Notes: a model not told the origin generated them from the sequence alone. A DNA stretch of 33,958 nucleotides from an uncultured Verrucomicrobiota bacterium (GCA_964472515.1 CAYYMW010000020.1:1-33958), one strand, 5' to 3'. Numbered from the stretch's first letter, positions 62 to 27,512 are shown. Numbers and translations: made by a program.

Positions 62-1474
62 CTACGGGAGCTGCGGCAGGGCCTGGGCGATCACTTGGAA
101 CACCGCATTGGGGGCAACCCCAAGGCCGATGATCGCCACGATCAGCACCACGCACCCGAACCGAGCGGGCAAGGTGAGGGTGATGGGGGGGCGGTCGCCG
201 GGATCGCGGAAGCAGGCTTCGCGAACGATCACGAGATAGTAATACACGGCGATGGCGGCGTTCAGCATCGCCAAAATGACGAGCGCCAGATAACCCTTGG
301 CCAACGCGGCTTTGAGCAGGGCGAATTTGCCCATGAAGCCCGCAAAGGGCGGCAGGCCGGCCAGCGCAAACACTCCCACCAACAAGGTGGCAGCCAGCAG
401 CGGCGAACGCCGGTGCAGTCCGGCGAGGTCGGTAATCGCCAGGTTCACCCCGTCCTTGGAGGTCCAACCGATCACGAGGAAGCAGGCCAGGACCATCAAG
501 GCGTAGCCGAAGATGTAGTAGAGGGAGGCGGTGTAACCATCCGTGCTGAGCGCCACAAACCCGACGAGCGCGTAGCCGGCGTGGGCGATGCCCGAGAAGC
601 CAAGCAACCGTTTGAGATCCTGCTGCATCAGGGCCACCAGGTTGCCATAGAACATGGAGGCCACGGCAAGGCCGGCCAACAGAGTCGGAATGACATGGTC
701 GGTCCCCGGGGTGAGGGTGGTGAAGCGCACCAAGACCGCGACCGCGCCGATCTTGGGGGCGGAGGCGATGAAGCTGGCCGTCTCGTGCGAGGCGCCTTCA
801 TAGACATCGGGCGTCCAGAAGTGGAAAGGAAAGATCGCGAGTTTGTAGAGCAGGCCGGCGAAGAGCATGGCAAGGCCCACCGTCGCCACCGTGGCTTCCT
901 TGGTGACGGCCAGCTTTTGCAGCATGACCGGCAGGAAGGTCGTGCCGGTCAGGCCGAACAGGTAGCTGACGCCGAAGAGCATCACCCCCATGGCCACGAT
1001 GCCGTACATGATGTACTTGATGGCCGATTCCATCTGGCTGCGCTGTCCCTCGCGTTCCCGGCGCATCGGCACGAGGAAGTACAGGGGGAAGGAGGAAAGC
1101 TCGAGGGCGATGATCAGGGCAAGCAGGTCCTGGCAACTGACGAGGAACACGAGTCCGGTGACGCTCAGGGTAAGAAAGAGGTAGTACTCCGGCTTCACGT
1201 CTTCGCGGATGTCCGGGAGGTTTCGGTCCATCGACACCACCAGCAGGAACACGAGCGACAAGCCGACCTTGAGCCATTGGGAATACGCGTCGACCAGGTA
1301 GGCGTCGTTGAAGAGGCTGGCGTGGCAGCCAACGGTGGCAAGCGCGGCGATCGCACCGGCCATGGCGATGATTTGGGCGGTGATCCGCGCGGCCGCGAGC
1401 CGCGAGTCTCCCAAAGCGATCACAAAGAGCGCCAGGGCTCCGAAAAGGAAGACAAGTTCAGGAAGAAAGACCAT
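62..1474 (-). CDS. nuoN: NADH-quinone oxidoreductase subunit N (complex I antiporter-like subunit)
   Basis: 470-aa polytopic membrane protein with NuoN/ND2-family conserved blocks (FHFWTPDVYEG, GFxGKFALL). It is the last gene of a nuoA..N-ordered minus-strand operon. Confidence 0.88.
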   Translation of the reverse strand: MVFLPELVFLFGALALFVIALGDSRLAAARITAQIIAMAGAIAALATVGCHASLFNDAYLVDAYSQWLKVGLSLVFLLVVSMDRNLPDIREDVKPEYYLFLTLSVTGLVFLVSCQDLLALIIALELSSFPLYFLVPMRREREGQRSQMESAIKYIMYGIVAMGVMLFGVSYLFGLTGTTFLPVMLQKLAVTKEATVATVGLAMLFAGLLYKLAIFPFHFWTPDVYEGASHETASFIASAPKIGAVAVLVRFTTLTPGTDHVIPTLLAGLAVASMFYGNLVALMQQDLKRLLGFSGIAHAGYALVGFVALSTDGYTASLYYIFGYALMVLACFLVIGWTSKDGVNLAITDLAGLHRRSPLLAATLLVGVFALAGLPPFAGFMGKFALLKAALAKGYLALVILAMLNAAIAVYYYLVIVREACFRDPGDRPPITLTLPARFGCVVLIVAIIGLGVAPNAVFQVIAQALPQLP

Positions 1475-1535: not shown

Positions 1536-3038
1536 TCAGGGAACGGCGACATAGGCATTCGAACGTTCCACCTGCTCGAGCAAGTGGTTTACACTGGCGT
1601 GGAGCACGTTGGTAAAGGGGCGCGGATGGAGGCCGATCCAGAACACGAATACGAGGAGCGGCGTGAGGGTGGCGATTTCCCGCCAGCCGAGGTCGGGAAT
1701 GGTGGAATGATCGGGATTACGCGTCCCGCCATAGGCGACTTTGAGGAGCAGGCGCAACATGTAGGCTGCGGCCAACACCACTCCCGGGACCACCAAGAGG
1801 GTGACCGGCTTCGACCAGGCGAAGCTGCCGCTCAGCACCAGGAACTCACCGATGAAACTGTTCGTGCCCGGGAAGGCCAGCGACGACAGGGAGAAGATCC
1901 CGGCGAAAAAGGCGAGGATGGGCATCTGCTTGCCGAGGCCGGCGACCTGCGCCAGCTCGCGGGTATGGAGGCGCTCATAGATGATGCCGACCAGGATGAA
2001 CAAGGCGCCGGTCGTCACGCCATGGTTGATCATGACCAGGAGGGCGCCTTCCACCCCCTGTGAATTCAGCAGGAAGATGCCGAGGGTGGCAAAGCCCATG
2101 TGGCCCACGCTCGAATAGGCCACGAGTTTCTTGAGGTCGCTTTGCGCCAGGGCCGTCAGGCCGCCGTAGAGAATCCCGAGGATGGACAGGCCGATGAGCC
2201 AGGGCATGAAGACATGCGTGGCGTGGGGGGTGATGGGGAGGCAGAACCGGAGGAAGCCGTAGGTGCCCATCTTGAGGAGCACGCTGGCCAGAATCACACT
2301 GCCCGCCGTGGGCGCCTCGACATGCGCCGCGGGCAGCCAGGTGTGGAAGGGGAACATCGGCACCTTGATGGCGAAGGACAGGGCGAAGGCCAGGAACACC
2401 CAGAACTGAAATTGCGGCGAATAAGCCCGCCCCATCAAGTCGGGGATGTAGAAGGTGTCCGCCTCCAGGTACAAGGCAATGATGGCGACCAGCAACATGA
2501 CCGAACCCGCCATCGTATAGATGAAGAACTTCAGGGCGGCGTAGATGCGCCGCGGGCCGCCCCAGACACCGATGAGCAGACTCATCGGGATGAGCATCGC
2601 TTCCCAGAATACGAAGAAGAGGACCAGATCCAAGGCGCAGAACACGCCTACCATGGCTCCTTCCATGATGAGGAGGCAGACGAGAAATTCCTTCACCCGC
2701 GTCTCGATGTACCGCCACGAAGCGGTCACGCACAACGGCATGATCAGGGTGGTCAGCAGCACCAGCAGCAGGCTGATGCCGTCCACGCCGAGCGTGTAGT
2801 TGATCTTGAGCCACGGAATCCAGGCGGCATGCTCGACGTACTGGAAGGCGGCAGACTGGGCCTCGAAGCGCCAGTACAGGGGGAGGGAAGCCCCGGCCAG
2901 AACGAGGGTGGACAGGAGAGTCCACCACCGGAGCGCGCGGGGGTTCTTCAGAAACAAGGCGACGACGGCCGCGGCCAGCGGGCCGAAGATCAGCACGCTG
3001 AGCAAGGGGAAGTCGATAGCGGAGGCGGTTGAACTCAT
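1536..3038 (-). CDS. nuoM: NADH-quinone oxidoreductase subunit M
   Basis: 500-aa membrane protein with NuoM/ND4 motifs (FFVFWEAMLIPM, LVAYSSVGHMG, HTWLPAAHVEAPT). It sits between nuoL and nuoN. Confidence 0.9.
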   Translation of the reverse strand: MSSTASAIDFPLLSVLIFGPLAAAVVALFLKNPRALRWWTLLSTLVLAGASLPLYWRFEAQSAAFQYVEHAAWIPWLKINYTLGVDGISLLLVLLTTLIMPLCVTASWRYIETRVKEFLVCLLIMEGAMVGVFCALDLVLFFVFWEAMLIPMSLLIGVWGGPRRIYAALKFFIYTMAGSVMLLVAIIALYLEADTFYIPDLMGRAYSPQFQFWVFLAFALSFAIKVPMFPFHTWLPAAHVEAPTAGSVILASVLLKMGTYGFLRFCLPITPHATHVFMPWLIGLSILGILYGGLTALAQSDLKKLVAYSSVGHMGFATLGIFLLNSQGVEGALLVMINHGVTTGALFILVGIIYERLHTRELAQVAGLGKQMPILAFFAGIFSLSSLAFPGTNSFIGEFLVLSGSFAWSKPVTLLVVPGVVLAAAYMLRLLLKVAYGGTRNPDHSTIPDLGWREIATLTPLLVFVFWIGLHPRPFTNVLHASVNHLLEQVERSNAYVAVP

Positions 3039-3045
3039 CGCGGGG

Positions 3046-4827
3046 TCAGAAGAGGTAGACCAGGAGCAGCGTCAGAAGCAAGGCGGCGGCGAACACCAAA
3101 ACGAGGCTTTGCTGAATCTGGCCGCGCTGGGCCGTGCGCAGGCGGCCGCCGACGCCGCGAATGGTGGTGGCCAGGCCGTCCACCAGGCCGTCGATCACAC
3201 GGTTGTCGAAGCGGCCGGCGAGGCGGGCGGAAACCATGAGCGGAATCAGGCCGGCCACGCGGTAGAGTTCGCCGACGGCGGTATCGGCCCATTGCACCGG
3301 TTTGCGGGCCAGCCAGGCGAACGCCCGGCCGCCCTTGCGGTAGAACCAGTCGGTATCGAGGCTGATGGTGGCTTCCGGTTCGAGCTTCTTGATCAGGAGG
3401 AAGAAGCCGACGGCGGTGAAAAGCAGCAACTGGAGGGTCTCCGAGACGTGGTAGGCGGTGTAGGGTTCGTACTCCACCTGGAAGGGGAGCTTGCCGTAGA
3501 GATACGGGGTGTAGCACCCGATGAAGATGCAAAGGACCGAGGTGATCGCCATGGCGACGTTCATGTTCCAAGGCGGCTCGCTGGCACGCTGCCAGGTGGT
3601 TTCCGAGCAATGGCGTTTGCCGAACCAGATGAAATACGGGACCTTCAGGCCGGTGTGGAGGAACGTGCCGACGGACGCCAGCATGAGGAGGTAGCCGACC
3701 CAGAGCTTGTGTTCCTCGAAGCCGGCGGTGACGATCATCGATTTGCTGACGAAGCCGCTGAACAGCGGAAAGGCGGAGATCGAGAGGCCGCCAACCAGCG
3801 TGAAAGCGAAGGTCCAAGGCATCTTCTCCCAGAGCCCGCCCAGGTTGGTGAACTTGCTTTCGCCGGTCTGGTGCAGCACCGCCCCGCAGCCCATGAAGAG
3901 GAGTCCCTTGTAAAGAATGTGCGCGAAGGCATGCGCGCAGGCCCCGTTGATGGCCAGTTCCGTGCCCAAGCCCACTCCCGCGACCATGTAGCCGACCTGG
4001 CTGATGATGTGGTAGGCGAGCAGGCGGCGGCAGTCGTTCTCGAGCACCGCGTAAACGACGCCGTACAGGGCCATCGCCACGCCGAGGGGGACCAGGATTT
4101 CCATGCCCGGGAAACCACGACAGAGCGCGTACACGGCCGTCTTGGTCGTGAAGGCACAGAGGAAGACGGAGCCGTTGAACGTGCCCTCGCCGTAAGCGTC
4201 GGGCAACCAGGCGTGCAGCGGCGGCACGGCGGCGTTCAGGATGAAGCCGATCAGGACCAACCACGCGGCCAGCGTGGGGTGGTGAACGTCAAAAGTGGTA
4301 AACGCGAGACTCCCGCCCTGGGAGTGCGCGTGAAGGATGATCCCCGCCAGCAGGGAGATGCCGCCCGCCACGTGAACCAGCAGGTAACGGTAGCCGGTGG
4401 CCAGAGACTGAGGACGGCGGCGGAACCAGATCAGGAACACGGACGAAAAAGCCATCAACTCCCAGAAGAGGAACAGCGTCAGGAAGTCTCCGGCGTAGAT
4501 GGCGCCCAGGGAACCCGCGGCATACGTCCAGGCGGCGGTGTGCTGCAGGCTTCCCTTGACGTGCAGACCGTACAGGGTCGAGATGATGCACATCAAACCC
4601 ATGATGTAGCCGAAGACCGAACTGAGGCGGTCCACCCGTCCGAAGACGAGGGTCCAATCGAGGAACTTGACCTCACCGAACGTTCCCGCGGACAGTTGGC
4701 AGATGCGGGCGAAGGTCAGCAGAGGAACCAGCAACAGAACCGCCGGGCGGGCGCGCTTTGGCACCAGCGGAAGCAGTAGACCACCGAGGATCAGGATCGC
4801 AGCGGGATGAATCCAGAGGCTATTCAT
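3046..4827 (-). CDS. nuoL: NADH-quinone oxidoreductase subunit L
   Basis: 593-aa Proton_antipo_M-family protein (LLAYHIISQVGYM, WLPDAYGEGT). Its C-terminus is a long, mostly charged amphipathic segment followed by a single final TM (..RLRTAQRGQIQQSLVLVFAAALLLTLLLVYLF), the hallmark of the NuoL lateral helix. The ATG at 4827 overlaps the stop of the upstream small ORF by 8 nt. Confidence 0.85.
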   Translation of the reverse strand: MNSLWIHPAAILILGGLLLPLVPKRARPAVLLLVPLLTFARICQLSAGTFGEVKFLDWTLVFGRVDRLSSVFGYIMGLMCIISTLYGLHVKGSLQHTAAWTYAAGSLGAIYAGDFLTLFLFWELMAFSSVFLIWFRRRPQSLATGYRYLLVHVAGGISLLAGIILHAHSQGGSLAFTTFDVHHPTLAAWLVLIGFILNAAVPPLHAWLPDAYGEGTFNGSVFLCAFTTKTAVYALCRGFPGMEILVPLGVAMALYGVVYAVLENDCRRLLAYHIISQVGYMVAGVGLGTELAINGACAHAFAHILYKGLLFMGCGAVLHQTGESKFTNLGGLWEKMPWTFAFTLVGGLSISAFPLFSGFVSKSMIVTAGFEEHKLWVGYLLMLASVGTFLHTGLKVPYFIWFGKRHCSETTWQRASEPPWNMNVAMAITSVLCIFIGCYTPYLYGKLPFQVEYEPYTAYHVSETLQLLLFTAVGFFLLIKKLEPEATISLDTDWFYRKGGRAFAWLARKPVQWADTAVGELYRVAGLIPLMVSARLAGRFDNRVIDGLVDGLATTIRGVGGRLRTAQRGQIQQSLVLVFAAALLLTLLLVYLF

Positions 4828-5080
4828 CGTAATAGTCCTCCCGGGTCATGATGCCGGCATGGCCGAAGGCTTTGGAGAGCAGGATCAACACGACGCAGCC
4901 GACAAAACCGAACACCGCCCAGAAGCCGGGAATGGTCTCGGTCTTGGTGTGGGCATGGTGTTTGTCCACCAACATCGGGATGGCGTCCAAAATGACCAGC
5001 AGGGCCAGCAGGACCCAGCACAACCGGATCACCGGCTTGAGGCGTTGGCGGATAAACTCGATGAAAGCGCGGAGTCTCAT
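4820..5080 (-). CDS. Small membrane protein (86 aa), translationally coupled between the extra antiporter-like gene and nuoL
   Basis: 86-aa ORF. The N-terminal amphipathic basic segment (MRLRAFIEFIRQRLKPVIRL) is followed by two hydrophobic helices. Its start overlaps the upstream stop as ATGA at 5077-5080 and its stop overlaps the nuoL start. It is in the coding-sense orientation of the operon. I recognise no family. Confidence 0.5.
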   Translation of the reverse strand: MRLRAFIEFIRQRLKPVIRLCWVLLALLVILDAIPMLVDKHHAHTKTETIPGFWAVFGFVGCVVLILLSKAFGHAGIMTREDYYDE

Positions 5081-6555
5081 GGCATAACGACGGCTTTGGC
5101 AAAGCCCATGAAGAGATCAGGGTAGAAGCCCAGGATGAGCGAGATGACCGCGGTGATGGTCAGCGGCACCACCATGGCAGGGTGGGCTTCTTTATAGTGA
5201 TGGCCGGCATCCGCTGCGGAGGGTTTTCCAAAGAAAGCCTGATACACCACCGGGGCGAAGTAGGCGGTGTTGAGCAGGGTGCTGGCGATCAGCACACAGA
5301 TGATGCCGATGGAGCCCGCATCCATGGCGCCGACCAGCAGGTACCACTTGGAGACGAACCCGCCCACGGGAGGCGCGCCGATCATGCCCAGGGAAGCGAT
5401 CGCAAAGGCGCCGAACGTGAAGGGCATGACCCGGCCCAGCCCACTCATCTCGGAGATGTTCTTCTTGTGCGTGGCGACGTAGATCGCCCCAGCGCAGAAG
5501 AACAGAGTGATCTTGGCGAAGGCGTGGTTGGCGATATGCACCAAACCACCTTCGACCGCCGCCGGTTTGAGGAGGGCGACCCCCAGAATCACATAGGACA
5601 ACTGGCTGACGGTCGAGTAGGCCAGCCGGGCTTTCAGGTTGTCCTTGCTTAGGGCGATGATCGACGCCGCCAGGATGGTGAACGAGACGAAGTAGGCGGT
5701 GGGCAGGCCCAGATTCAGCGCGTCCATTTTGTCCACGCCGAACACGTAGAGCATGACGCGGACGGTCGAAAACACCCCGACTTTGACGACGGCGACGGCG
5801 TGCAGCAGGGCGCTGACCGGGGTAGGGGCCACCATCGCGCTGGGAAGCCAGTTGTGAAAGGGCATGATGCCGTTCTTGGCGAAGCCCAGCAGGCAGGCAA
5901 CGTAAGCGGCGGTGACCAGGCCTTTGTGGGCCTCCGGCGGCAGAATGCCGGTATGGATGTTGTGGGCGAAATCGAGTGTGCCGCTGAGCACGTAGATCAG
6001 CACCATGGCGGGCAGCACCAAGGCCTTCGCGGTGCTGGTGAGGTAGACCAGGTATTTGCGCGCGCCCTCGTAGCTTTCCTCATCCTGGTGGTGGGCCACC
6101 AAGGGATAGGTCGTGATGCTGACGATCTCGTAAAACAGGTACAGGGTGAACAGGTTGTCGGCAAACGCGCACCCCATGGCACCGAACAGGGCCAGGGCGA
6201 AGCAGGCATTGAAGCGGGTCTGAGCGTGTTCCTCGAGACCCCGCATGTAACCGGCGGAGTAGAAGACCGCCAACACCCAGAGGAACGAGGCCGCCACCGC
6301 GAAGATCATCGAGAGAGCGTCCGCGCGGAGAGTGACACTCAGGCCGGGCAGCATGTCGAACAGAACGAACGAGATCGTCTTGCCGGAACGAACAGCGGGG
6401 ATCAGGGAGACGGTTGTGAGAAAGAGGGTGGCGGCGGCCAGGAACGAACAGGCTTCGCGCAGATTGGGGCGCCGGCCGGTGACCATCACCAAGCCCGCGC
6501 CGAGGAGCGGGGCCAGGATGGCCAGGAGCAATCGTGGTTCGGTAATGGTCTCCAT
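5077..6555 (-). CDS. Additional complex I/Mrp antiporter-like subunit (NuoM/MrpD-like paralogue)
   Basis: 492-aa protein with Proton_antipo_M-family signatures (LFYEIVSITTYPLV, FHNWLPSAMVAPTPVSALLHA, LAYSTVSQLSYV). It lies between nuoK and nuoL in addition to canonical L, M and N. It lacks a NuoL-type C-terminal lateral helix. Confidence 0.8.
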   Translation of the reverse strand: METITEPRLLLAILAPLLGAGLVMVTGRRPNLREACSFLAAATLFLTTVSLIPAVRSGKTISFVLFDMLPGLSVTLRADALSMIFAVAASFLWVLAVFYSAGYMRGLEEHAQTRFNACFALALFGAMGCAFADNLFTLYLFYEIVSITTYPLVAHHQDEESYEGARKYLVYLTSTAKALVLPAMVLIYVLSGTLDFAHNIHTGILPPEAHKGLVTAAYVACLLGFAKNGIMPFHNWLPSAMVAPTPVSALLHAVAVVKVGVFSTVRVMLYVFGVDKMDALNLGLPTAYFVSFTILAASIIALSKDNLKARLAYSTVSQLSYVILGVALLKPAAVEGGLVHIANHAFAKITLFFCAGAIYVATHKKNISEMSGLGRVMPFTFGAFAIASLGMIGAPPVGGFVSKWYLLVGAMDAGSIGIICVLIASTLLNTAYFAPVVYQAFFGKPSAADAGHHYKEAHPAMVVPLTITAVISLILGFYPDLFMGFAKAVVMP

Positions 6556-6562
6556 AGGGGCG

Positions 6563-6889
6563 CTAGCCGCGCAGGTCGGTGAGTTGGCGCGGTTCGATCG
6601 ACCGGTAATTGCGGTACACGGCGATGATCACGCTCAGCGCGACTGCGACTTCCGCCGCCGCCAGCCCCATGATGACCAGCACGGCGATCTGGCCGACGGT
6701 CGGGTCAGGCGCGCTGAAGCGGTTGAGCGCCATGATGTTGAGGGCGGCCGCTGAAAAGATGAGTTCGCCGGCGATGATCATGCCGACGAGCGTGCGTCGA
6801 CGCACCAGGCCGAAGACGCCCACTGCGAAAAGGAAAGCGGCGAGGGCCAGATAGACGCGGGGGTCGTTGTAGAGGCCAGTCAGGTTCAT
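6563..6889 (-). CDS. nuoK: NADH-quinone oxidoreductase subunit K
   Basis: 109-aa three-TM protein (MNLTGLYNDPRVYLALAAFLF..AAEVAVALSVI..). It is the C-terminal in-frame part of six-frame ORF 6563..7285. Its ATG at 6889 overlaps the nuoJ stop as ATGA. Confidence 0.85.
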   Translation of the reverse strand: MNLTGLYNDPRVYLALAAFLFAVGVFGLVRRRTLVGMIIAGELIFSAAALNIMALNRFSAPDPTVGQIAVLVIMGLAAAEVAVALSVIIAVYRNYRSIEPRQLTDLRG

Positions 6890-7422
6890 GGTTTGGTGCG
6901 GCCGTAGCGCGCGATGACCAGGGCTCCCAGAATGGCGACGAGGAGCACCAGGGAAATGAGTTCGAAGGCCAGACTGTAGGTCGTGAGCAGCGAGGTGCCG
7001 ATGGCGGCGATGGAGCCGGAGTCGACGCTGGCCGTCGATTTCGGCCAGGCATGGCTGGCACCCACCCAGCAGAGACCTGCAAAGGCGGCGCCCGTGATGG
7101 CGAAGGCCAGTCCGCCCCATCCGAAGGAGGCTAGAGTACGTTCCGGCGGCGGGGGCTCCATAGGTTCGGCCAGCATGACCGCGAAAATGATGGTGATGCA
7201 GACCGCGCCGACGTAGATGAGCATCTCCATGAGCGCCAGGAAGGGACTGCAGAGAAAGTAATACAGGCCGGCCAGGCCGGTGCAACAGAGCGCCAGGCCG
7301 CAGACGCCATGAATGATCTTCGGAGTCAGCACGGCCAGAAGCGCGCCAGTTACCGTGGCGGCGACGAACAGGAGGAAGACGGCCAGAACTGCCGCCTGGG
7401 TGGCGGGGTTGATCTGGGTCAT
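6886..7422 (-). CDS. nuoJ: NADH-quinone oxidoreductase subunit J
   Basis: Real start at internal Met (MTQINPATQAAVLAVFLLFVA...). The ATG at 7422 overlaps the nuoI TGA as ATGA. The 5-TM NuoJ/ND6-like profile is present. The upstream part of six-frame ORF 6886..7560 is rejected. Confidence 0.82.
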   Translation of the reverse strand: MTQINPATQAAVLAVFLLFVAATVTGALLAVLTPKIIHGVCGLALCCTGLAGLYYFLCSPFLALMEMLIYVGAVCITIIFAVMLAEPMEPPPPERTLASFGWGGLAFAITGAAFAGLCWVGASHAWPKSTASVDSGSIAAIGTSLLTTYSLAFELISLVLLVAILGALVIARYGRTKP

Positions 7423-7868
7423 CGGTTTTCCTCCTCGAACCGCTGGACGAGGTCGATCTGGCAGTAGGGGGTCTTGCTCAGGGAGGCCAGGTTGTACGCC
7501 TTCGAGTAGGCCAGAGCATCGGTGGGGCAGACTTCGACGCAAGCGCCGCAAAGACTGCACTTCGTGAAATCCAGTTTGAAATCAGTCACCGACTTGCGCT
7601 TCTCCCCTTCACGCTTGATGCCTTCGACGACGATGCAGTCGCTTGGGCAGGCTTTCTCGCACGACTTGCAGGCGATGCACAGCGTCCGGCTGGGATTCTC
7701 GGGGTCCTTGACGAGAATGATGTGGCCCCGGTAGCGGGGGGCCATCTTCAACGATTCACGCGGATAGTGCAGCGTGACCGGCTTGCGGAAGAACTCGGCC
7801 AGCGTGATGCGCATGCCGACAAAAATGGTCCGCAGGCCCAAAAGAGTGTCGCGCAAGGGAGTTTTCAT
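7419..7868 (-). CDS. nuoI: NADH-quinone oxidoreductase subunit I (2x[4Fe-4S] ferredoxin-like)
   Basis: 150-aa protein with two CxxCxxCxxxCP motifs (CIACKSCEKACPSDC and CSLCGACVEVCPTDA). It starts MKTPLRDTLLG at the ATG overlapping the nuoH stop. The long N-terminal extension of ORF 7419..9029 is an out-of-frame artefact over nuoH. Confidence 0.9.
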   Translation of the reverse strand: MKTPLRDTLLGLRTIFVGMRITLAEFFRKPVTLHYPRESLKMAPRYRGHIILVKDPENPSRTLCIACKSCEKACPSDCIVVEGIKREGEKRKSVTDFKLDFTKCSLCGACVEVCPTDALAYSKAYNLASLSKTPYCQIDLVQRFEEENR

Positions 7869-8860
7869 GAATGAAGGACTTTCAGCATGACCGCCGTGAG
7901 AATCAGGATGGCCAGCGAGGTCGGGATGAGAATCTTCCAGGACAGATTCAGCAGGCCGTAGAATTGGGTCCGGGGCACGGTCCAGCGAATCCAGATGACG
8001 GTGAAGCAAAGCAGGTAGAGCTTGAGCAGGAACCAAGGCAGGCCGCTGAAGGCGCCGAAGGGACTCTGCCAACCACCGAAGAAGAGAATCGTGGCCACGC
8101 TGCAGCCAACGACGATGTTGGCGTATTCGGCCATGAAGAAGACCCCGAACCCCATGCCGGCGTATTCGGTGAAGGCGCCGGCGACCAATTCGCTCTCCGC
8201 CTCGGCCATGTCGAAGGGAGCACGGTTGGTTTCGGCCAGCATGCAGGTGAAAAAGATGATGAAGGTGGCCGGCATCAGCGGGTTGGCGTCCAGGCGGAAA
8301 ATGTTCCAGTGCCAGAACCAGCCGGCCTGCTGGGTCACGATTTTCTGGAGATCCATGGTTCCCGTGACCATCAGCATGGTGGTTACCACCAACAACATCG
8401 GCACCTCGTAGGCGACATCCTGCGAGACCACGCGGGCGGCCGATACAATGGCGTACTTGTTCCGCGAAGCCCAGCCTCCCAGCATGATGGCCATGACGTT
8501 GATCGCGCCGAAGGAAAACATCATCAGCAGCCCGACGTTGAGGTTCCGGGCAACCAGGAAATCGCTGAAAGGCACCGTGGCCAGGCACATCAGCGGCGGG
8601 CTCATGACCATGATGGGGGCCAGCCGAAAGAGGATGCCGTCCACTCCGGCCGGAACGATGAGTTGCTTGGACATCAGCTTGAGGCCGTCCGCCACGGGCT
8701 GAAGCAGGCCGGCGTAGCCGACCTCGGTGGGACCGGCGCGACGCTGGAAGCGGCCGGCGCCCTTGCGCTCCACCCAGACCAGGTAGGCGGCGTTGAAGCC
8801 CACAAAGGCCATGATGCCCGCCAGGAAGGCGATCAGTTTGAAGAGTTCGGGGAGGCTCAT
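7865..8860 (-). CDS. nuoH: NADH-quinone oxidoreductase subunit H
   Basis: 331-aa membrane protein with NuoH/ND1 signatures (GLLQPVADGLKL, ETNRAPFDMAEAESELVAG). Confidence 0.9.
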   Translation of the reverse strand: MSLPELFKLIAFLAGIMAFVGFNAAYLVWVERKGAGRFQRRAGPTEVGYAGLLQPVADGLKLMSKQLIVPAGVDGILFRLAPIMVMSPPLMCLATVPFSDFLVARNLNVGLLMMFSFGAINVMAIMLGGWASRNKYAIVSAARVVSQDVAYEVPMLLVVTTMLMVTGTMDLQKIVTQQAGWFWHWNIFRLDANPLMPATFIIFFTCMLAETNRAPFDMAEAESELVAGAFTEYAGMGFGVFFMAEYANIVVGCSVATILFFGGWQSPFGAFSGLPWFLLKLYLLCFTVIWIRWTVPRTQFYGLLNLSWKILIPTSLAILILTAVMLKVLHS

Positions 8861-8874
8861 GGGAAGAGGGCGGC

Positions 8875-10005
8875 TTACCGGTCAATATCGGGGATGACCA
8901 GATCGAGGGAACCCATGAGGGCCAGGGCGTCGGCGAGCAGCATGCCCTGGCTGGCTTCCTCAAACAGGCTGAGGTTGGAGAAGCAAGGCGTCCGGAGTTT
9001 GAGGCGATATGGCGTATCGGTGCCATCACTGACCGCGCGGACCATGAACCGTCCCCGGGCGGCTTCGACGGCGAAGGAGTAGTTGCCGGGCGGCAGTTTG
9101 ACCGTCTTGGGGACGCCCTTGGCCATCACCGGCCCTTCGGCGATCAAGTCGAGGGCCTGGTCAATGATGCGCAGGCTTTGCACTATTTCCTCCATGCGCA
9201 CCAGATAGCGCGCCATGCAATCACCTTCCGGGAAGGTGGGGATGTCGAACTGAAGTTCCGGGTAGATGGAGTACGGTTCGGCGCGCCTTACATCATAGGC
9301 AATGCCGGAGCCGCGGATAACGGGTCCCACCGCGCCGTACTGGCGGCACAGTTCCGGACTAAGCGGGCCAATATTGGTCAGCCGTTTGCGCAGGATCACG
9401 TTGTCGGTGACCAGCGCACGGTACATGCCAAGCCGGGGGCGCATGGAGATGACGAACTCGCGCACGCCCTTGAGAAAGGCGTCATCGACATCGTTGCAGA
9501 GGCCGCCGAAGCGGTAGTAGCAGTAGGTGAGGCGGGAACCAGTAACGCCTTCCAGCAGGTCGAGAATCTTCTCCCGATCATCGAAGGCGTAGAGCAGGGG
9601 GGTGAATCCCCCCAAATCGAGCAGGAAGGCCCCGAACCAAACCAAGTGACTGGAGATCCGGTTGAGCTCCGAGGTGATGACGCGGATGCATTCCGCCCGG
9701 CGCGGCACCTCGATGGCCAGCGCGCGCTCGACCAAACCCACATAAGCGTGGGTGTAGGTCATCGCCGAGAGGTAGTCGATCCGGCTGGTGTTGGGGAGAA
9801 ACTGGGCCCAAGTCCGGTTCTCGCCCATCTTCTCATGCATCCGGTGGATATAACCGGGGACCGGTTCCGCGCGCCGGATGAACTCGCCATCCATGGTCAG
9901 CTTGACCCGCAGCACGCCGTGGGTGGCGGGATGCTGGGGGCCGAGGTTGAGCACGAAGGTCTCCCGTGGGCCGTGCTCCGCCGGAGTAGTTGGCTCGAGA
10001 ATCAC
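8875..10005 (-). CDS. nuoD: NADH-quinone oxidoreductase subunit D (49 kDa)
   Basis: NuoD signature LNLGPQHPATHGVLRV. There are no hydrogenase-type Ni-binding CxxC pairs. The GTG start at 10005 overlaps the nuoC TGA as GTGA, and the N-terminal 119 aa of six-frame ORF 8875..10362 are rejected. Only 14 nt separate its stop from the nuoH start. Confidence 0.88.
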   Translation of the reverse strand: MILEPTTPAEHGPRETFVLNLGPQHPATHGVLRVKLTMDGEFIRRAEPVPGYIHRMHEKMGENRTWAQFLPNTSRIDYLSAMTYTHAYVGLVERALAIEVPRRAECIRVITSELNRISSHLVWFGAFLLDLGGFTPLLYAFDDREKILDLLEGVTGSRLTYCYYRFGGLCNDVDDAFLKGVREFVISMRPRLGMYRALVTDNVILRKRLTNIGPLSPELCRQYGAVGPVIRGSGIAYDVRRAEPYSIYPELQFDIPTFPEGDCMARYLVRMEEIVQSLRIIDQALDLIAEGPVMAKGVPKTVKLPPGNYSFAVEAARGRFMVRAVSDGTDTPYRLKLRTPCFSNLSLFEEASQGMLLADALALMGSLDLVIPDIDR

Positions 10006-10504
10006 GGCTGGAAGTCCTTCTTCAACGGATGGTAATCGGCGTCGTCCGGCAGCAGAAAGGGCGTCAGGTTGGGATTTCCCAGGAAGCGGATGCCGAAGAA
10101 ATCGTGGGTTTCGCGCTCGTGCCAGTCGGCGCCGGGGAAGACCTTCATGACGGTCGGGAGTTCGGCGGCCGATCTGGGAACCCGGGTGCGGACGGCGGCG
10201 CGCCAGCCAGTCAGCGCATGGAAGTAGTCGTAGATGACCTCCATTTGGTCCTGCTTGATCCAGTCGACGCCGGTGATGGTGTCGAAAGCGAAGCCGTAAG
10301 CGGCCAGCAATTCGGCGGCCGCCACGACATGTTCGGGGGTCACGGTGAAATCCAAGTGGCAACCGCTTGGGCCCAGACGGTCGGAGGGCGCCGGGACAGG
10401 CGCAGGGGGAACCGCCGGCGACGGTGCGGGAGCCGCGGCCGCAGGGGCGACCGGCGCCGGAAACTGATCGGCGAACCGGTGGGCAATGGTTTCCGGGGTG
10501 ACGT

Positions 10505-10508
<4 letters not shown>
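10002..10508 (-). CDS. nuoC: NADH-quinone oxidoreductase subunit C (30 kDa)
   Basis: 169-aa protein starting [12 protein letters not shown]. The NuoC core is [25 protein letters not shown]. The ATG at 10508 overlaps the nuoB stop as ATGA. There is an Ala/Pro-rich N-terminal low-complexity stretch. It is not fused to nuoD. Confidence 0.85.
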
Positions 10509-11005
<497 letters not shown>

Positions 11006-11379
11006 AAAACACCTTTCTTCCAAGCGTAGACGATGACGAGCGAGAGAATCCCCACGAACAAGATCAACTCAACCAGATCCCGGTAGGCAAACTGCCGGTT
11101 GTAGACAAGGGCGACCGGAATCAGGAAGAGCACATCGACCGCGAAAGCCACAAAGATCAAAGCGTAAAGGTAGTAGACCGCGCTATAGCGAATCCACGCA
11201 TCCCCAATCGGGTCCATGCCGCATTCCACGACCTGCTCCGCCTTTTGGGCGGCCTGGCGCGTCTCGCGGGGGGAGAGCAGGGCCACGACGACGAATGGAC
11301 CCGCGGCGAACAGAAGTCCGCCGAAGCAGAAAGCCATGACGTAAAGTAAGTCTATCAGATATGCGTCTTCGAGGATCAT

Positions 11380-12117
11380 AGAAGCACTACCGGCCTATCG
11401 CTGCAAATGGTCGTTGCCGCCTTGGCAGGTTCAAATTACGGGAACCGGCCAAAGAGATCAAGCATTCGTTGAAGCCAGGCCGCCGGGCGGGCGCGCTGAT
11501 ACCGGCGCGCGTCGCCACAATCGACTCTGGCCCAAGGCATAGACACGTCATGATCACACCCGTTGATTTGGGGCGCAGAGTCATCGCGGGAAAGGCCCCG
11601 GTTCATCCGCAGAGCCCGGCGGCAAGGGGGCGTCAGCCTTCGCCAACCACCTCTCCAGCGCAGGGGTTTGAAAGTGTAAACTACACGCCGCCAAGGAGCT
11701 TCGGTTGTTCGCGCAGGTTGGCGTCGGTTGGCGGGTGGCTTGCTGGCGACCCATAAAAACTGGACCCAGCATGGCATGAGAGGGATTAAGAATCAAGCGG
11801 TAGCATGGAAGAAATAAGAGATGCGCATGCTGTAATTTATTGAAGAGTAGTGGGAGTGATGAGGTGCGTTAGCGTGAGTCAATTGCGCGGAGAGGTGTCT
11901 GCGGCCGCTTGAGGGCGGATTCTGGCAAAGCGCACCAGGATGGTGCGTGAACGGTGAAGGAGCCCCAGCCAAAGGAACGCCAAAGCCAACAGGACCGGGC
12001 CAACCCGCGCCGGGAGGACAAAACCATCATCCTAATAAACTAAAGGCGAATCACTTATGTATGGGGCTGACTGGGTGTGGTTGGGCGAGGCGTGAAACCG
12101 GGCGCTGGAAATGAAAC
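11380..12117. promoter_or_regulatory. Long non-coding leader/promoter region of the nuo operon with an AT-rich island (about 11765-11875)
   Basis: About 740 bp carry no credible ORF; all six-frame ORFs there are Arg/Pro-rich, low-complexity translations. There is a sharp local GC drop at around 11765-11875, a GTGTAAACTACAC hairpin at 11676-11688, and tandem GGTTGGCG repeats at 11720-11742. Confidence 0.35.
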
Positions 12118-12143
12118 GGGGCTCCACCTTGCGATGGAGCCCC
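12118..12143 (-). terminator. Candidate intrinsic terminator of the ThuA-like gene
   Basis: Perfect 9-bp inverted repeat GGGGCTCCA-N8-TGGAGCCCC, 34 nt downstream (on the minus strand) of the 12177 stop. On the minus strand it is followed by GTTTCATTTCC, a weak U-tract. Confidence 0.45.
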
Positions 12144-12176
12144 TGGCGTACGGTGAGCGGCGGAATCCCCGATGGT

Positions 12177-12920
12177 TCAGTCCTTTCCAGCGACCCAGCG
12201 GATGGCTTGCGCCACGAGCTTTCGATAGCCGGGGTTCTCGTAAGCGAAATGATCGTGCCCGAGCTGGAGGTAGACGATCCGCCCCTTTTTGTACTGATTG
12301 CTCCAGCCGATGACCGGGGCGCTGGTCTTCTCCTTGGTCGTGAGCAGCGGCTTCGAGGTGGGCGCGACGTCGAAGAGGTTGTAGGTCTCGTCCAGGATTT
12401 GAAAGTCCGTGAGGCCCTTCGTGACTGGGTGGGAAGGATCGGCGATGCTCACGGTGAACTTCACCCCGTGTTGGTAGATCGACCGGGCCTTCTCCACCCC
12501 GCGCACCGTCTTCTTGGAGAGGTAGTAACGTCCGCCCAGAATCTTCTCGTACTCGTCCCAGTTCTGGTAGTTGGCCACGCTGTGGTGGAGCGTCACCATG
12601 CCTTTGCCTGCCTTGAACCATTGCTGCAGGTCGGCTTTGGTCTCGTCAGTGATTTCCTGGTGCATGTCGTAAACGACCAGCACGTCGAACTTTGCGGCCG
12701 CTTCAGGGCGGAGATAGGCGTGGGCGTTGGGATGTTCCACGGCGGTGAAGACGATCTCCGGGTTGTCCTTGAAGAGCTGGAAGAACTGGGGCTGCTCGAA
12801 GTCATGCCCGCCCGTGAAAAGCAGCACCCGCAGTTTTCCGCCGTCGGCCGCCGCTGCGGTCGTTGCGAGCCAACCGGTCGCTGCAAGAGCGGCCGCGCAC
12901 CATATCAGCCATCGCTTCAT
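12177..12920 (-). CDS. Secreted ThuA-like (trehalose-utilisation / class I glutamine-amidotransferase-like fold) protein
   Basis: 247 aa with an N-terminal signal peptide (MKRWLIWCAAALAATGWLATTAAAA). ThuA-family blocks are LRVLLFTGGHDF, MVTLHHS and GRIVYLQLGHDHFAYENPGYRKLVAQAIRWVAG. Confidence 0.65.
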   Translation of the reverse strand: MKRWLIWCAAALAATGWLATTAAAADGGKLRVLLFTGGHDFEQPQFFQLFKDNPEIVFTAVEHPNAHAYLRPEAAAKFDVLVVYDMHQEITDETKADLQQWFKAGKGMVTLHHSVANYQNWDEYEKILGGRYYLSKKTVRGVEKARSIYQHGVKFTVSIADPSHPVTKGLTDFQILDETYNLFDVAPTSKPLLTTKEKTSAPVIGWSNQYKKGRIVYLQLGHDHFAYENPGYRKLVAQAIRWVAGKD

Positions 12921-12956
12921 ATTTTGTCCGTTGGGTTGCGAGCCCGTTTCCAGGCT

Positions 12957-15668
12957 CTATTTGCCGCGTGTCACCACGGTTTCCCGTTCCACGTCGTGGA
13001 GGGAGCCGAGCACCTGCACGCGAGTGTCGCCAAAGCCATGATACACCCTGACCTGGCGCGCCGCCTCCAAGGGACGCTTGTCCAGACTCCGCAGCGCAAA
13101 GAGCGGGGCCTGGGCGTAGCGCACGCCCTTCCAGTTGAGTGCATGGAAGGCGGTAAAAGTCGGTGATTCCACCAGGAATCCATAGGGTGGAAGGTGAACG
13201 TTGCCGGCGTAGCGGCTCCGGCAGCGGTAGTTGGCGGCGCCGAAATTGACAAACACCTCGGTGCGATCCTCCCCGGTGCCAAACACACTGTGCTGCACCT
13301 TGCGATCCGCCGTGAGGAACTCGTGCCGGGTCATGGGTTGGCGGCTGGTCAGTTCGTTCAACGGCGAGAGAATCTCGTAGGTGTTCTTCACGAACCGGTC
13401 CATCGGGTGCAGCCCGTCCGACCAGCCCTTGTCGCCGCGGACGAAGAGGCCGGGGTCCAGGCCGGGGGCGGTTCCGGTGTGAGCAACCGGCGCGAAGCGG
13501 GCGCTGCCAGGGCCATCGGCGGTCAGTTCGCCGAGGATATGGCGGCGCTCGCCATCGTCCGGCCCACGGAGGCGCACGCGCTGGCCGCCGGCTTCTTGGA
13601 AGAGGCCGAGGCGGAGTTGGGCGCGGCCGCTGAAGCCCTTGGGGAGGGTTACCCGGGAGGTGTCCTGGTAGGTCTGGCCCGGCTGCCACTGGCTGGTGGG
13701 CACGGCCGGCTCATAGTCGCCTTGGAACAGAATCTTGCCGTCGGCGTCGGTGAAATGCACCAGAACGCGGTAATCCTTGGCCGGGGTCGTTTCCGCCCGC
13801 CAACCGCAGGTGAGGCGCACTTCCACCTGGTCGCCGGGGCCGGCTTTGATGGCGACGCCGTCGATGCCCGGTTGGAGGGCCAGCGGCAGTTGCTCGCTGA
13901 TGGTCTCCTTCCAATACAAGTGGGCGGGGATGTTGTGGTGATTCAGGGTGCGACCGAGGATCAGGTGCTGCAGCACATAGGGCGCGGCGTTCGCGGGCTC
14001 GTAGCCGTACTTGCCGTACATCGCGATGGTGTCCCGATAGACGAGCTCGAAGAGCGGAATCACCGTGGCGCCCAGGTCGCGCTCCAGGTTCTCGTTGTGG
14101 TAAGCATGTCCGCTAACACCGGTCAGGCCCTCGAAGAAATCGCTGTGAGGAATCGCCCATTCGCGACCGCACTCGCTGCCGAAGATGGAGAACTCGCTCC
14201 GCGCATAGTCGGAGAGCGCCTGCTTCCATTTCATGTCCCCAGCCCGATCCAGCGGGTGCTGCGGATCATGGCACTCCATGAGGCCGGAGGCGTAGGTGGT
14301 GTCGATGAAGTAGGCATCGGCGCCGGTCAACCGCTTCACGGCAGGGAGGTTCTGGGGCCGCCGCGCGAGCTCCAAGGCCTTCTGCGAGCAGGTCAGGTAG
14401 GCGCGTCCTCCGGCCCAGACGCCCCCTTTCGCCAGGTTTCCGTCGGGCGTGCGCATCAGGTAGCTCTCGTCCCAAGAGGGCGCGTCGCGGTACATGTCCT
14501 GGTAGTTGTCGTGCAGACCGAAGAGGTAGCCCAACTGGCGGACGCGGCCCGCGCATTCGTGGAACGCAAAGTCACCGCCGCATTCCGGGGCGGCAGGCAG
14601 GATGTCGGGATGCTGGTTGTCGTACCCGCGGTGAATCCAGCCGCCCATCAGGAAGAACACCTTGTCGAGTTGGAGGTCCTGTTTCAGGTGTTCCGCCACC
14701 TGAGCGGCTTCCTCAAAGGTCCAGTTGACCCGCGAGTGCTCCTCCTTGGTGCTGGTCTCGTTCATCTGGCGGTCCAAGGCGCTCCAGAGCTTGAAGTTGA
14801 TGGCGCCGAAGAGCCGGGCGCGCTCGGGATGGCGTTTGAGCTTCTGGTCCCAGGTCACCAGCCAGCCGCGTTCCCTGGCCATTTCCCGGTACGCCTGCCC
14901 AATCTCATTGTAGTCACCCTGGCCCAGCAGGCTGATGCGGCAGTGTGCGGCGCTCCGCCGCAGCACCAAGGAGAGGGAAAGGACATCCCGCCCACCGAAG
15001 CGGCCGCCGAGGGGCTGTTCCTGGCGGACCTCCGCCGTGACGTTGGGATCCTCCCAACTCACCAGGAGGGCCGTGCCGCGTTTGAGCATGCCCGCCATGG
15101 TCAGGTGACAGCCCTCGTAAGCATAGGTATCGAAACTATGCCGGAACGTCTTGCCGCTGCCTGCGGGGATCAGCAGACCTTCGCGCGCGGGGATGACGGC
15201 GGAGCCGCGATCCGCTTCGGTGGTCCAGAACGCTTCGTCCAGCAGTCTCAGGCTCTGAACGGTCAGTGCCTGGTCGGCCAGGTAGGAGAAGTCCAGACTG
15301 CGTTCGTCGGGTCCTCGCCTTATAAATACGGTCACCGCGGCCCCGGACTGATTTGGATCCGGGCGAAACAAGGCCTCCAACCGGTCGGGAAACTCGTGGA
15401 TCTCACACGCGCTCAAAGGTTGCCGGAGCGCCTTGCCGTCCACCACGAGGGTGATTTCGCCAAACCGACTTTGATGGGGATTCGAGCGCCAGACGACGCC
15501 GCTGGCCTTGTCCAGCAGTTGATACTCGCCGTTGGCAGGGCTTAGTTCGAGCCGGTATTGCCCGGTTTCCAGTTGCGCGCGGGGGGCCGCCAAGACGGCC
15601 AGAGAGGCGGCAGCCGTCAGGAGAAGCAGGAACGCCTGTCGGGCCAGAAACCGATGCTGCGAATTCAT
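12957..15668 (-). CDS. Secreted 903-aa protein, putative glycoside-hydrolase-like TIM-barrel protein
   Basis: Has a signal peptide. It is a long ORF that uses the high-GC3 codon style of neighbouring genes. Central blocks (FFLMGGWIHRGYDNQHPD, AYFIDTTYASGLMECHDP, FGSECGREWAIPHSDFFEG) are reminiscent of GH-like TIM-barrel domains (DUF5696-like). A 36-nt gap to the downstream ThuA-like gene suggests an operon. Function is low-confidence. Confidence 0.55.
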   Translation of the reverse strand: MNSQHRFLARQAFLLLLTAAASLAVLAAPRAQLETGQYRLELSPANGEYQLLDKASGVVWRSNPHQSRFGEITLVVDGKALRQPLSACEIHEFPDRLEALFRPDPNQSGAAVTVFIRRGPDERSLDFSYLADQALTVQSLRLLDEAFWTTEADRGSAVIPAREGLLIPAGSGKTFRHSFDTYAYEGCHLTMAGMLKRGTALLVSWEDPNVTAEVRQEQPLGGRFGGRDVLSLSLVLRRSAAHCRISLLGQGDYNEIGQAYREMARERGWLVTWDQKLKRHPERARLFGAINFKLWSALDRQMNETSTKEEHSRVNWTFEEAAQVAEHLKQDLQLDKVFFLMGGWIHRGYDNQHPDILPAAPECGGDFAFHECAGRVRQLGYLFGLHDNYQDMYRDAPSWDESYLMRTPDGNLAKGGVWAGGRAYLTCSQKALELARRPQNLPAVKRLTGADAYFIDTTYASGLMECHDPQHPLDRAGDMKWKQALSDYARSEFSIFGSECGREWAIPHSDFFEGLTGVSGHAYHNENLERDLGATVIPLFELVYRDTIAMYGKYGYEPANAAPYVLQHLILGRTLNHHNIPAHLYWKETISEQLPLALQPGIDGVAIKAGPGDQVEVRLTCGWRAETTPAKDYRVLVHFTDADGKILFQGDYEPAVPTSQWQPGQTYQDTSRVTLPKGFSGRAQLRLGLFQEAGGQRVRLRGPDDGERRHILGELTADGPGSARFAPVAHTGTAPGLDPGLFVRGDKGWSDGLHPMDRFVKNTYEILSPLNELTSRQPMTRHEFLTADRKVQHSVFGTGEDRTEVFVNFGAANYRCRSRYAGNVHLPPYGFLVESPTFTAFHALNWKGVRYAQAPLFALRSLDKRPLEAARQVRVYHGFGDTRVQVLGSLHDVERETVVTRGK

Positions 15669-23986: not shown

Positions 23987-24535
23987 GAAATGGGATCTCC
24001 GGCTGGGGGTGGCGAACGTGCCGCGTGCGGTTCACCCGGAAGGGTGCCGCGCGCGTGCCAAGACAGCAATAGATGGCCGCCTCATGAACCGCAGCATCCC
24101 AATAACCCGTCCTGATATCAATCCTTTTGGTGCCGGCCGTGCAGATCTGACTGGGTGCAAGGCAGCACCTGGGGGGGCGTCCGTGGGCGTCCTGCCAAAG
24201 GCCGGTAGCAGACCAGATCGTGATGTTGCAAGGCCTTGACCGCAAGCAACATAACCGAGAACGGCACCGCCAGAGATGGCTTGCTTCAGCGGGCTGACAC
24301 GCAGCCCTCCCGATCCCCACGCCGCCAGGAAGTTTGGTGGAGCTTCGAGATCGAGGGCGCGGGGCAGGGGAGGGGTGATGAGTCGTCAGTCAGCGCCCGG
24401 TCGCTTCCCGGCTACAAAGCCCTCTGGAAATTGTAAGTGAAAACTCGCACCAGCCATGGTTAAGTACCCGTGTACTAGCTCTGAGACAGTGTTGCGCGGG
24501 TGTGCGGAAGCGACTTTGGCATTCAACTTCTGGCG

Positions 24536-25339: not shown

Positions 25340-25341
25340 TT

Positions 25342-27417: not shown

Positions 27418-27512
27418 TGGGGCACGCTGACTCATTCCTTGCGCGCCCCCGGCCGAAATTGCCTGCGGCCGGGGGCGTTCTGGCAGGCAATCCCGTTCAC
27501 TGACCCGTCATT

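Follow-up and report, generated by a model that had tools for sequence, protein, structure and literature searches.

A probable four-pump complex I from a verrucomicrobium, in which a three-gene cassette takes the place of nuoL

This study concerns a complex I operon within 33,958 nucleotides (nt) of DNA from an uncultured Verrucomicrobiota bacterium (GCA_964472515.1 CAYYMW010000020.1:1-33958; the whole stretch is called the window), in which the place of nuoL is taken by two genes for antiporter-like proteins and a small gene between them. Two kinds of complex I with four pumps have been described, the '2M' type of Nitrospira and the green type of rhizobia, and five translocated ions have been proposed for such enzymes (Yu, Chadwick et al. 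2022, PMC9040806). The green enzyme of Rhizobiaceae has a pair of MrpD-like subunits in place of NuoL (Degli Esposti & Martinez-Romero 2016, relayed in PMC9040806 and PMC7415380), and in the 2M enzyme an additional NuoM is accompanied by a 26-amino acid (aa) insertion in the lateral helix of NuoL (Chadwick et al. 2018, relayed in PMC9040806 and PMC7419157). An operon of Desulfovibrio africanus has been labelled 'NUO11+M' (Degli Esposti 2015, PMC4758237). Among more distant systems, MbsH' of the Pyrococcus MBS keeps two pumps together as a unit by means of a lateral helix, with the lysine of its seventh transmembrane (TM) helix at K217, and the MBH has a separately encoded lateral element, MbhI, with the topology TM-lateral helix-TM (PMC7684303; PDB 6u8y and 6cfw for MBS/MBH).

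I consider it probable that the window operon encodes a complex I without NuoEFG, in which nuoL is replaced by a cassette of three genes (X, S and Y; their products in the window are called X492, S86 and Y593), and that the enzyme has four antiporter-like subunits, with S86 in a structural role. The operon, delimited by listing and translating open reading frames (ORFs), by Pfam and NCBIfam scans and by mapping of start codons, comprises 13 genes on the minus strand, given below in the order nuoA-B-C-D-H-I-J-K, X492, S86, Y593, nuoM, nuoN. It is without nuoEFG, since nuoH directly follows nuoD.

nuoA, 10969..11379, minus strand: opens the operon (ORF and synteny)
nuoB, 10505..11023, minus strand: ORF and synteny
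nuoC, 10002..10508, minus strand: ORF, mapped start and synteny
nuoD, 8875..10005, minus strand: ORF with a GTG start; nuoH directly next
nuoH, 7865..8860, minus strand: ORF; orthologues in individually inspected distant loci carry PF00146
nuoI, 7419..7868, minus strand: two 4Fe-4S cysteine motifs in the translation; synteny and mapped start
nuoJ, 6886..7422, minus strand: PF00499 match; mapped start
nuoK, 6563..6889, minus strand: PF00420 match and NF004320 at 70 against a cutoff of 57; mapped start
X492 (492 aa, 'MrpD1-like'), 5077..6555, minus strand: first gene of the cassette; 14 TM helices, without lateral helix; ATG start
S86 (86 aa), 4820..5080, minus strand: middle gene of the cassette; two-TM protein of an unnamed family; ATG start
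Y593 (593 aa, 'MrpD2-like'), 3046..4827, minus strand: TM15, lateral helix and TM16 at its C terminus; would fill the structural role of NuoL or of the N-terminal part of MrpA
nuoM, canonical, 1536..3038, minus strand: TIGR01972 at 594.8 against a cutoff of 263.8; Glu at TM12; in the NuoM clade (100%)
nuoN, canonical, 62..1474, minus strand: TIGR01770 at 333.3 against a cutoff of 332.6; in the NuoN clade (100%)

An earlier note on this DNA had pointed to a 492-aa ORF of the Proton_antipo_M family at 5077-6555, to an 86-aa ORF coupled to it through ATGA, and to a fourth antiporter-like subunit in the operon, and in these respects it was right. The first is an ATG-initiated ORF that matches PF00361, the second occupies 4820-5080 and begins within a 4-nt ATGA overlap (...ccATGAgac), and the Pfam and NCBIfam scans find four PF00361 proteins encoded by the operon. 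The junction from S to Y (gATGAATAGcc) is likewise an overlap, of 8 nt: ATGAATAG. The note had left conservation of the 86-aa ORF beyond this genome to be looked for; it is conserved, and always accompanied by X and Y.

The extent of that conservation was judged by scanning species-representative genomes with a narrow alignment of S (284 places confirmed, 80 loci retained from them) and by mapping the 13 window proteins onto these loci by tblastn. The 80 loci are biased towards the closer S subfamily, and distant S homologues were looked up one by one. The gene order A B C D H I J K X S Y M N is found in all 80 as far as the contigs reach. The loci come from at least five phyla and include Verrucomicrobiota/Opitutaceae, Desulfobulbales, Desulfovibrio desulfuricans, an Acidoferrum metagenome-assembled genome, Latescibacterota and Planctomycetota. 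The overlaps are preserved as well, X to S by 4 nt in 61 of the 80 and S to Y by 8 or 11 nt in 71. The spacing from D to H is at most 656 nt in 69 related loci, so nuoEFG is absent there too.

The cassette also stands in other surroundings. The core K-X-S-Y-M-N occurs in complex I operons that do contain NuoEF(G), from Leisingera (L082), from groundwater (L084) and from marine alphaproteobacteria (L085 and L086). X-S-Y is found moreover in operons of the Mrp type without the Nuo Q-module, in Microbulbifer (L083) and in a metagenome (L087), with the order MnhE-MrpF-MnhG-MbhD/MbhE/MnhB-MrpC-MrpD-X-S-Y. Within the plasmid collection, homologues of S and orthologues of Y are each found in 99 records with identical breakdown by taxon and mobility (67 Sinorhizobium, 18 Rhizobium, 11 Ensifer, 2 Phyllobacterium and 1 Pararhizobium). 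On pSymA of S. meliloti (L088) the order is nuoJ, nuoK, X, S, Y, nuoM, nuoN, nuoA-F, and the three cassette genes are annotated, respectively, as 'monovalent cation/H+ antiporter subunit D family protein', 'hypothetical protein' and 'Na(+)/H(+) antiporter subunit D'. X-S-Y is one portable three-gene cassette, conserved across phyla and present in both complex I and Mrp-type antiporters.

Some of these loci have peculiarities of their own. The green-type operon of Leisingera encodes a 147-aa CBS-domain protein between nuoI and nuoJ (L082, 6153-6596), and its Y protein bears a low-complexity C-terminal extension of about 90 aa. In L087 the Mrp-type operon is directly followed, at 11675-15585, by an ATP synthase Fo set (ATPase_gene1, AtpI, a, two c genes, one of them of 304 aa, and b) that resembles N-type or Na+-type ATPase clusters.

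X492 matches PF00361 (Proton_antipo_M) with 186.3 bits against a cutoff of 21.5, and also PF00662 (Proton_antipo_N). Its NCBIfam assignment is NF006236 (PRK08375.1-1), 'putative monovalent cation/H+ antiporter subunit D', which aligns end to end at 831.7 against a cutoff of 663; in the same collection it falls below the cutoff of the NuoM model TIGR01972 (201.1 against 263.8 bits) and below those of the NuoL and NuoN models. When the four antiporter-like proteins of the window are aligned with E. coli NuoL, NuoM and NuoN, X492 proves to keep every residue of the proton channel: Glu143 in TM5, Lys227 in TM7, His252 and Lys258 in TM8, then His340/His344/Lys348, and Lys403 in TM12. Across 78 orthologues these positions vary little or not at all. 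At TM12 the lysine of X492 contrasts with the glutamate of the window's nuoM product, and Glu at this position is a trait of Nqo13/NuoM (PMC7419157). The TM8 stretch of X492, PTPVSALLHA, hardly differs from its counterpart in E. coli NuoL (form common to both, PTPVSAL(I/L)HA), and because of this common stretch a position of X492 adjoining NuoM would fit. The best match among PDB sequences is MbhH (1.4e-44, about 22-23% identity). Judged by these features, X492 reads as a complete antiporter-like pump of the NuoL/MrpA flavour without a lateral helix, and clearly not as a paralogue of NuoM.

Y593 also matches PF00361 (153.9 bits against 21.5) and is assigned over its full length to NF009310 (PRK12668.1), 'Na(+)/H(+) antiporter subunit D', at 771 against a cutoff of 564. 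It passes neither of the NuoL models, TIGR01974 NDH_I_L (163.9 against 407.5) or PRK06590 (160.9 against 556); the alignment to TIGR01974 extends to position 627 of the 630 in the model. In the alignment with the E. coli subunits its channel residues are Glu123, Lys229, His299/His303/Lys307 and Lys362. The column of the TM7 lysine (K229 of E. coli NuoL), occupied by Lys in every other aligned subunit, is occupied in Y593 by Asn198, and that of the TM8 histidine (H254 of E. coli NuoL) by Cys; X492 has both the Lys and the His. Asn198 is found in all 73 Y593 orthologues from the 80 loci, and their other channel positions are invariant or nearly so. The invariant asparagine suggests that the cytoplasmic input half-channel of Y593 differs from that of a canonical pump; Y593 may pump by itself or may chiefly hand ions on and release them.

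The C-terminal part of Y593 is what sets it apart within the operon, as it is the only protein there with a lateral helix and a TM16 anchor. The AlphaFold2 model contains all 16 helices, among them TM15 (458-482), a 74-residue helix (493-566) and TM16 (570-592). The best Foldseek matches of the model are MrpA, NuoL and NdhF, with identities of at most 23%, and the best PDB sequence match is MbsH' (1.5e-39, about 22-23% identity); a PDB search with the C-terminal 157 residues returned noise only. The connector between TM15 and TM16 measures 84-93 aa in Y proteins of the complex I type as compared to 74-83 aa in five canonical NuoLs (E. coli, Legionella, Tsukamurella, Sphingomonas and Prevotella). 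A Y protein from the Mrp-type operon of Microbulbifer (L083, 9332-11038) has a connector about 20 aa shorter and carries Lys at TM7 (AFGIKCAF); all other Y proteins examined, that of the Mrp-type L087 included, carry Asn. Three longer Y homologues (P0449, P0452 and P0476) were considered as possible S-Y fusions and rejected, their extra length being only C-terminal tails that look like read-through.

The relationships among these proteins were examined in a neighbour-joining tree of the window proteins, cassette proteins from rhizobial, betaproteobacterial and Mrp-type operons, six canonical NuoLs, and NuoM and NuoN of E. coli. Separate clades are formed by NuoL (bootstrap 97%), X (86%), Y (100%), NuoM (100%), NuoN (100%) and the Mrp-type D proteins (100%). 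The products of the window's nuoM and nuoN fall inside the NuoM and NuoN clades, and X492 lies outside the former. X and Y proteins from complex I and from Mrp-type operons fall into common X and Y clades. The tree, in which X stands beside NuoL with only 27% support, is small and was built from sequences other than Bacillus-type MrpA and MrpD, so that its deep relationships are tentative.

For S86, the protein encoded between X and Y, 1357 homologues are found at E ≤ 1e-3, the most distant at about 30% identity, and these fall into 451 clusters at 50% identity. S86 itself has no match in Pfam, in NCBIfam, among PDB sequences or, by Foldseek on the predicted model, among PDB folds. Members of the family are annotated at their sources as 'hypothetical protein' or with automatic names that are inconsistent with each other, and the small ORF is not mentioned in the literature searched, a search limited in reach. 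AlphaFold2, given an alignment of 54 sequences, models S86 with a mean pLDDT of 88 as a helix (3-12), a TM helix (14-33), a loop (34-52), a second TM helix (53-77) and a less confident tail. Residues conserved throughout the family are Asp32, His42, Glu48, Pro51-Gly-Phe-Trp54, Gly58, Cys62, Lys70, Gly73 and Glu81-Asp-Tyr-Tyr84, with His44 conserved in the set of closer homologues. Conservation is thus seen in the loop, in TM2 with its face of small residues (G58, C62), in the juxtamembrane Lys70/Gly73 and in the EDYYD tail.

Six of the first 19 residues of S86 are basic, from which I infer that its N terminus, and hence its C terminus, faces the cytoplasm; the cluster Asp/His/His/Glu/PGFW would in the model then lie at the periplasmic face. 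Some S homologues (P0179, P0195) bear N-terminal extensions of 70-90 aa, one of them Cys-rich and resembling a zinc ribbon (CSACE...CEACG). Their sequences suggest lineage-specific cytoplasmic additions, and the Cys-rich one fits a cytoplasmic N terminus. The N-terminal helix itself is about 10 residues long in the model (about 15 Å) and only moderately amphipathic: the hydrophobic moment of residues 2-16 is 0.45, a value that 32% of shuffles reach. It is maintained within the NuoEFG-less clade (I7 in 99%, R11 in 97%, L14 in 91%), is replaced by an unrelated, Pro-containing sequence in alphaproteobacterial and Mrp-type homologues, and is lacking in P0253, P0256 and P0240.

Two structural roles for S86 were considered and rejected: that it stands in for TM15 and TM16 of a NuoL-like ancestor of X492 (its predicted topology, with both termini inside, is opposite to that of TM15/TM16), and that it makes up for TM helices lacking in Y593 (all 16 are there in the Y593 model). 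Apparent X-S fusions (P0163, P0269) look like artefacts of frameshifts at the ATGA overlap. To judge from its family and its gene neighbours, S86 is likely a structural subunit, present in stoichiometric amount and attached to the X-Y pair or close to it; any specific contact or role in an ion path would be speculative.

In the arrangement that I propose, the membrane arm has four antiporter-like subunits and most likely runs NuoN-NuoM-X492-Y593. This order is suggested because the channel residues of X492 are complete, with NuoL-like TM7 and TM8, because Y593 alone has the lateral helix and TM16, and because the gene order C-D-X-S-Y of Mrp-type operons matches the expected physical order. Y593 would be distal, its lateral helix reaching back along the cytoplasmic face of the adjoining subunits, and one more ion would be moved per two electrons than in the canonical enzyme. 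S86 would be made in step with both partners through the overlapping stop and start codons, and its acidic-aromatic tail (K...G...EDYYD) would lie in the cytoplasm, where the basic, Arg-rich lateral helix of Y593 is expected to run. Either TM16 would be anchored one pump short of its canonical site or another element may help to keep the fourth pump in place; S86 is the one that suggests itself, though not by way of its N-terminal helix.

A more far-reaching proposal, which I hold to be possible but doubtful, is that the S86 family is an obligatory subunit of a portable X-S-Y double pump that displaces NuoL and the N-terminal part of MrpA across many phyla. The S86 hairpin would staple X492 to Y593, a role proposed because the lateral helix of Y593 is not lengthened enough for a fourth pump, and its periplasmic Asp/His/His/Glu would aid the exit of ions beside a Y subunit whose input half-channel is disabled. 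The operon does not encode the electron donor; ferredoxin or another low-potential carrier of that kind is the probable one, in line with proposals for other 11-subunit enzymes. The span from ferredoxin to menaquinone is large enough for five ions per two electrons. In NADH-linked versions a fifth ion brings the reaction near equilibrium and favours reversibility. The same energetic argument, on the fifth ion and reversibility, is found in the four-pump complex I papers cited above.

Several points weigh against a four-pump enzyme of this kind. The lateral helix of Y593 lies in the low-confidence part of the model (pLDDT 40-60). The connector exceeds the canonical length by about 10 residues, not by about 26 as in 2M enzymes, and the helix may therefore not cover all three neighbours. 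Nor do the connectors of the Mrp-type Y proteins (70 and 90 aa; n=2) follow the number of pumps. Given the missing TM7 lysine, Y593 may not pump independently, and the total of ions could then remain four. Searches of the PDB by sequence and by Foldseek gave no homologue of S and no orthologue of X or Y above 23% identity. The order of the subunits, the number of ions moved and the place of S86 are inferences throughout.

Of the other explanations, the one that fares best, though unlikely, takes S86 to be an assembly factor or membrane chaperone of the X-Y pair, absent from the mature complex. The strict co-occurrence of S with X and Y in two different host complexes would suit such a helper, as would its small size and the lack of a recognisable catalytic motif. 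However, its frame overlaps both neighbours in most loci, which suggests stoichiometric co-production, and the invariant small-residue face of TM2 together with the invariant tail looks like a permanent packing interface. Nor are dedicated bacterial complex I assembly factors known to be commonly encoded between genes of core subunits, which I also count against this explanation.

It is rather improbable that X-S-Y serves as a module for Na+/H+ (or K+/H+) exchange, autonomous or within complex I, that handles sodium and adds no proton pump. The trio does occur in Mrp-type antiporter operons, NCBIfam names the families of both X492 and Y593 antiporter subunit D, and the replacement of Lys by Asn in TM7 alters the input half-channel of Y593. 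In Mrp, however, the Na+ path is formed by MrpB, C, E, F and G (PMC7419157, PMC7684303), and by tblastn and synteny none of these subunits is encoded in either the window operon or the 80 loci related to it, which are thus not of the Mrp (CPA3) type. Moreover, X492 retains the full set of proton-pump residues, and there is no other subunit with a lateral helix in the operon, so Y593 must serve the arm of complex I.

The earlier note had proposed something different again: that X492 is a second NuoM, as in the 2M type, ahead of a bona fide nuoL, and that the amphipathic helix of S86 could be a separately encoded clamp; on this reading it would offset a lateral helix too short for the additional pump. 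There are four PF00361 subunits, as that proposal demands, and the extra pumped ion that the note attached to it is also the literature's proposal for four-pump complex I (PMC9040806). With a connector only about 10 aa longer, one pump may lie beyond the helix and need another tether; MbhI offers a precedent for a separately encoded lateral helix (PMC7684303), and the N-terminal helix of S86 is conserved within the NuoEFG-less clade. What fails is the identity of the parts. X492 scores below the NuoM cutoff, has Lys at TM12 and, where clustering with the NuoM of complex I had been the test, groups instead with the X subunits of Mrp-type operons. Y593, the second member of an Mrp-type pair, resembles NuoL in its TM15, lateral helix and TM16 but departs from it in model score and in both the TM7 Lys and the TM8 His. 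The two TM helices ascribed to the 86-aa protein are there in the AlphaFold2 model; its amphipathic N-terminal helix spans about 15 Å against the roughly 39 Å (26 residues) needed per pump, is no more amphipathic than many shuffled sequences, is not family-wide and is missing in some homologues, and its topology is unlike that of MbhI. The clamp as stated is not borne out, and the proposal as a whole is very improbable.

That the 86-aa ORF is a chance frame has next to no probability: GC-rich DNA does give many overlapping ORFs (four of 79-92 aa overlap the S86 stretch), but 1357 homologues with an invariant motif and fixed neighbours across phyla refute it, PGAP annotates S as a coding sequence in S. 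meliloti, and the pLDDT of the model is high.

Elsewhere in the window, about 800 bp at 11380-12176, between nuoA and a ThuA-like gene (12177-12920), hold the lowest GC content of the window (0.58 at 11001-12000) and are presumably the promoter region of the nuo operon. On the plus strand, three co-directional ORFs at 24500-32759, which may form one unit, encode proteins of 279 aa (without a family), 693 aa and 1748 aa. The second (25336-27417) has no Pfam match at 1e-4; it has an N-terminal TM segment, begins, by eye, like an SPFH/flotillin protein and continues as a very long coiled coil rich in Glu, Lys, Ala and Arg. This ORF, by its makeup, accounts for the AT skew of 0.44 at 26001-27000. 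The third contains DUF3686 ('ATPase involved in DNA repair'), DUF7902 and AAA domains, with a weak PADLOC match to LmuB (1.4e-6).

Returning to the complex I with the X-S-Y cassette, four-pump variants bear on how many ions are coupled per quinone reduction and on how the enzyme is tuned for low-potential donors or for reverse electron flow. The design in which two MrpD-like subunits serve for NuoL is not confined to rhizobia and travels as a three-gene cassette that Mrp antiporters also use. The invariant asparagine in TM7 of the helix-bearing subunit and the conserved small subunit amount to natural experiments on coupling, available in culturable hosts (S. meliloti with pSymA, and Desulfovibrio).

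How, then, does the window operon stand with respect to the systems known? From MBS and MBH it differs, at identities of about 22-23%. There is no S-like subunit in MBS, and the TM7 residue is Lys in MbsH' and Asn in Y593. MbhI has the topology TM-lateral helix-TM as compared to helix-TM-TM in S86, whose helix is too short and which matches no PDB chain in sequence or fold. The Mrp-type operons L083 and L087 resemble the window in having X-S-Y with the same overlaps, downstream of MrpC and MrpD, and differ in the presence of MnhE, MrpF, MnhG and MnhB and in the absence of any quinone or Fe-S module. As for the 2M enzyme of Nitrospira, so far as its description is relayed in the citing papers, it too has four antiporter-like subunits and a fifth translocated proton proposed; however, it adds a true NuoM and lengthens the helix of NuoL by about 26 aa, whereas the window operon has lost NuoL to the cassette, has an extra subunit other than NuoM, and has a connector that exceeds the canonical one by only about 10 aa.

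The 'NUO11+M' operon, like the window's, has 11 subunits without NuoEFG and an additional antiporter-like gene, and the Desulfovibrio loci recovered here (L055 and others) have a 13-gene order identical to that of the window. The label, however, counts the extra gene as a copy of M. In the window that gene does not code for NuoM, nor its 'L' neighbour for NuoL, and a small gene is present as the third. Green complex I, as relayed in the papers that cite it, agrees with the window in its two MrpD-like subunits in the place of NuoL and its four antiporter-like subunits. Its X and Y are orthologous to those of the window (common clades), S stands between them there too (L088), and Y593 is 51% identical to the S. 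meliloti protein. It differs in host (alphaproteobacterial, as compared to an Opitutaceae-type verrucomicrobium) and in its rearranged order, nuoJ-K-X-S-Y-M-N-A-B-C-D-E-F..., with nuoEF(G), where the window has A-B-C-D-H-I-J-K-X-S-Y-M-N and no nuoEFG.

By gene content and order, then, the window operon reads as a NuoEFG-less relative of green complex I in the standard order, and not as the 2M type. The four-pump design with two MrpD-like subunits instead of NuoL has already been described, and this operon is a further case of it. What is added here is that the cassette has three genes, not two, and is common to complex I and Mrp antiporters; that its small member belongs to an unnamed, strictly co-occurring family and its helix-bearing member has an invariant change from Lys to Asn in TM7; and that the X-S-Y form is the norm for the NuoEFG-less enzyme in Opitutaceae-type Verrucomicrobiota and in several Desulfobacterota (Desulfobulbales, Desulfovibrio).

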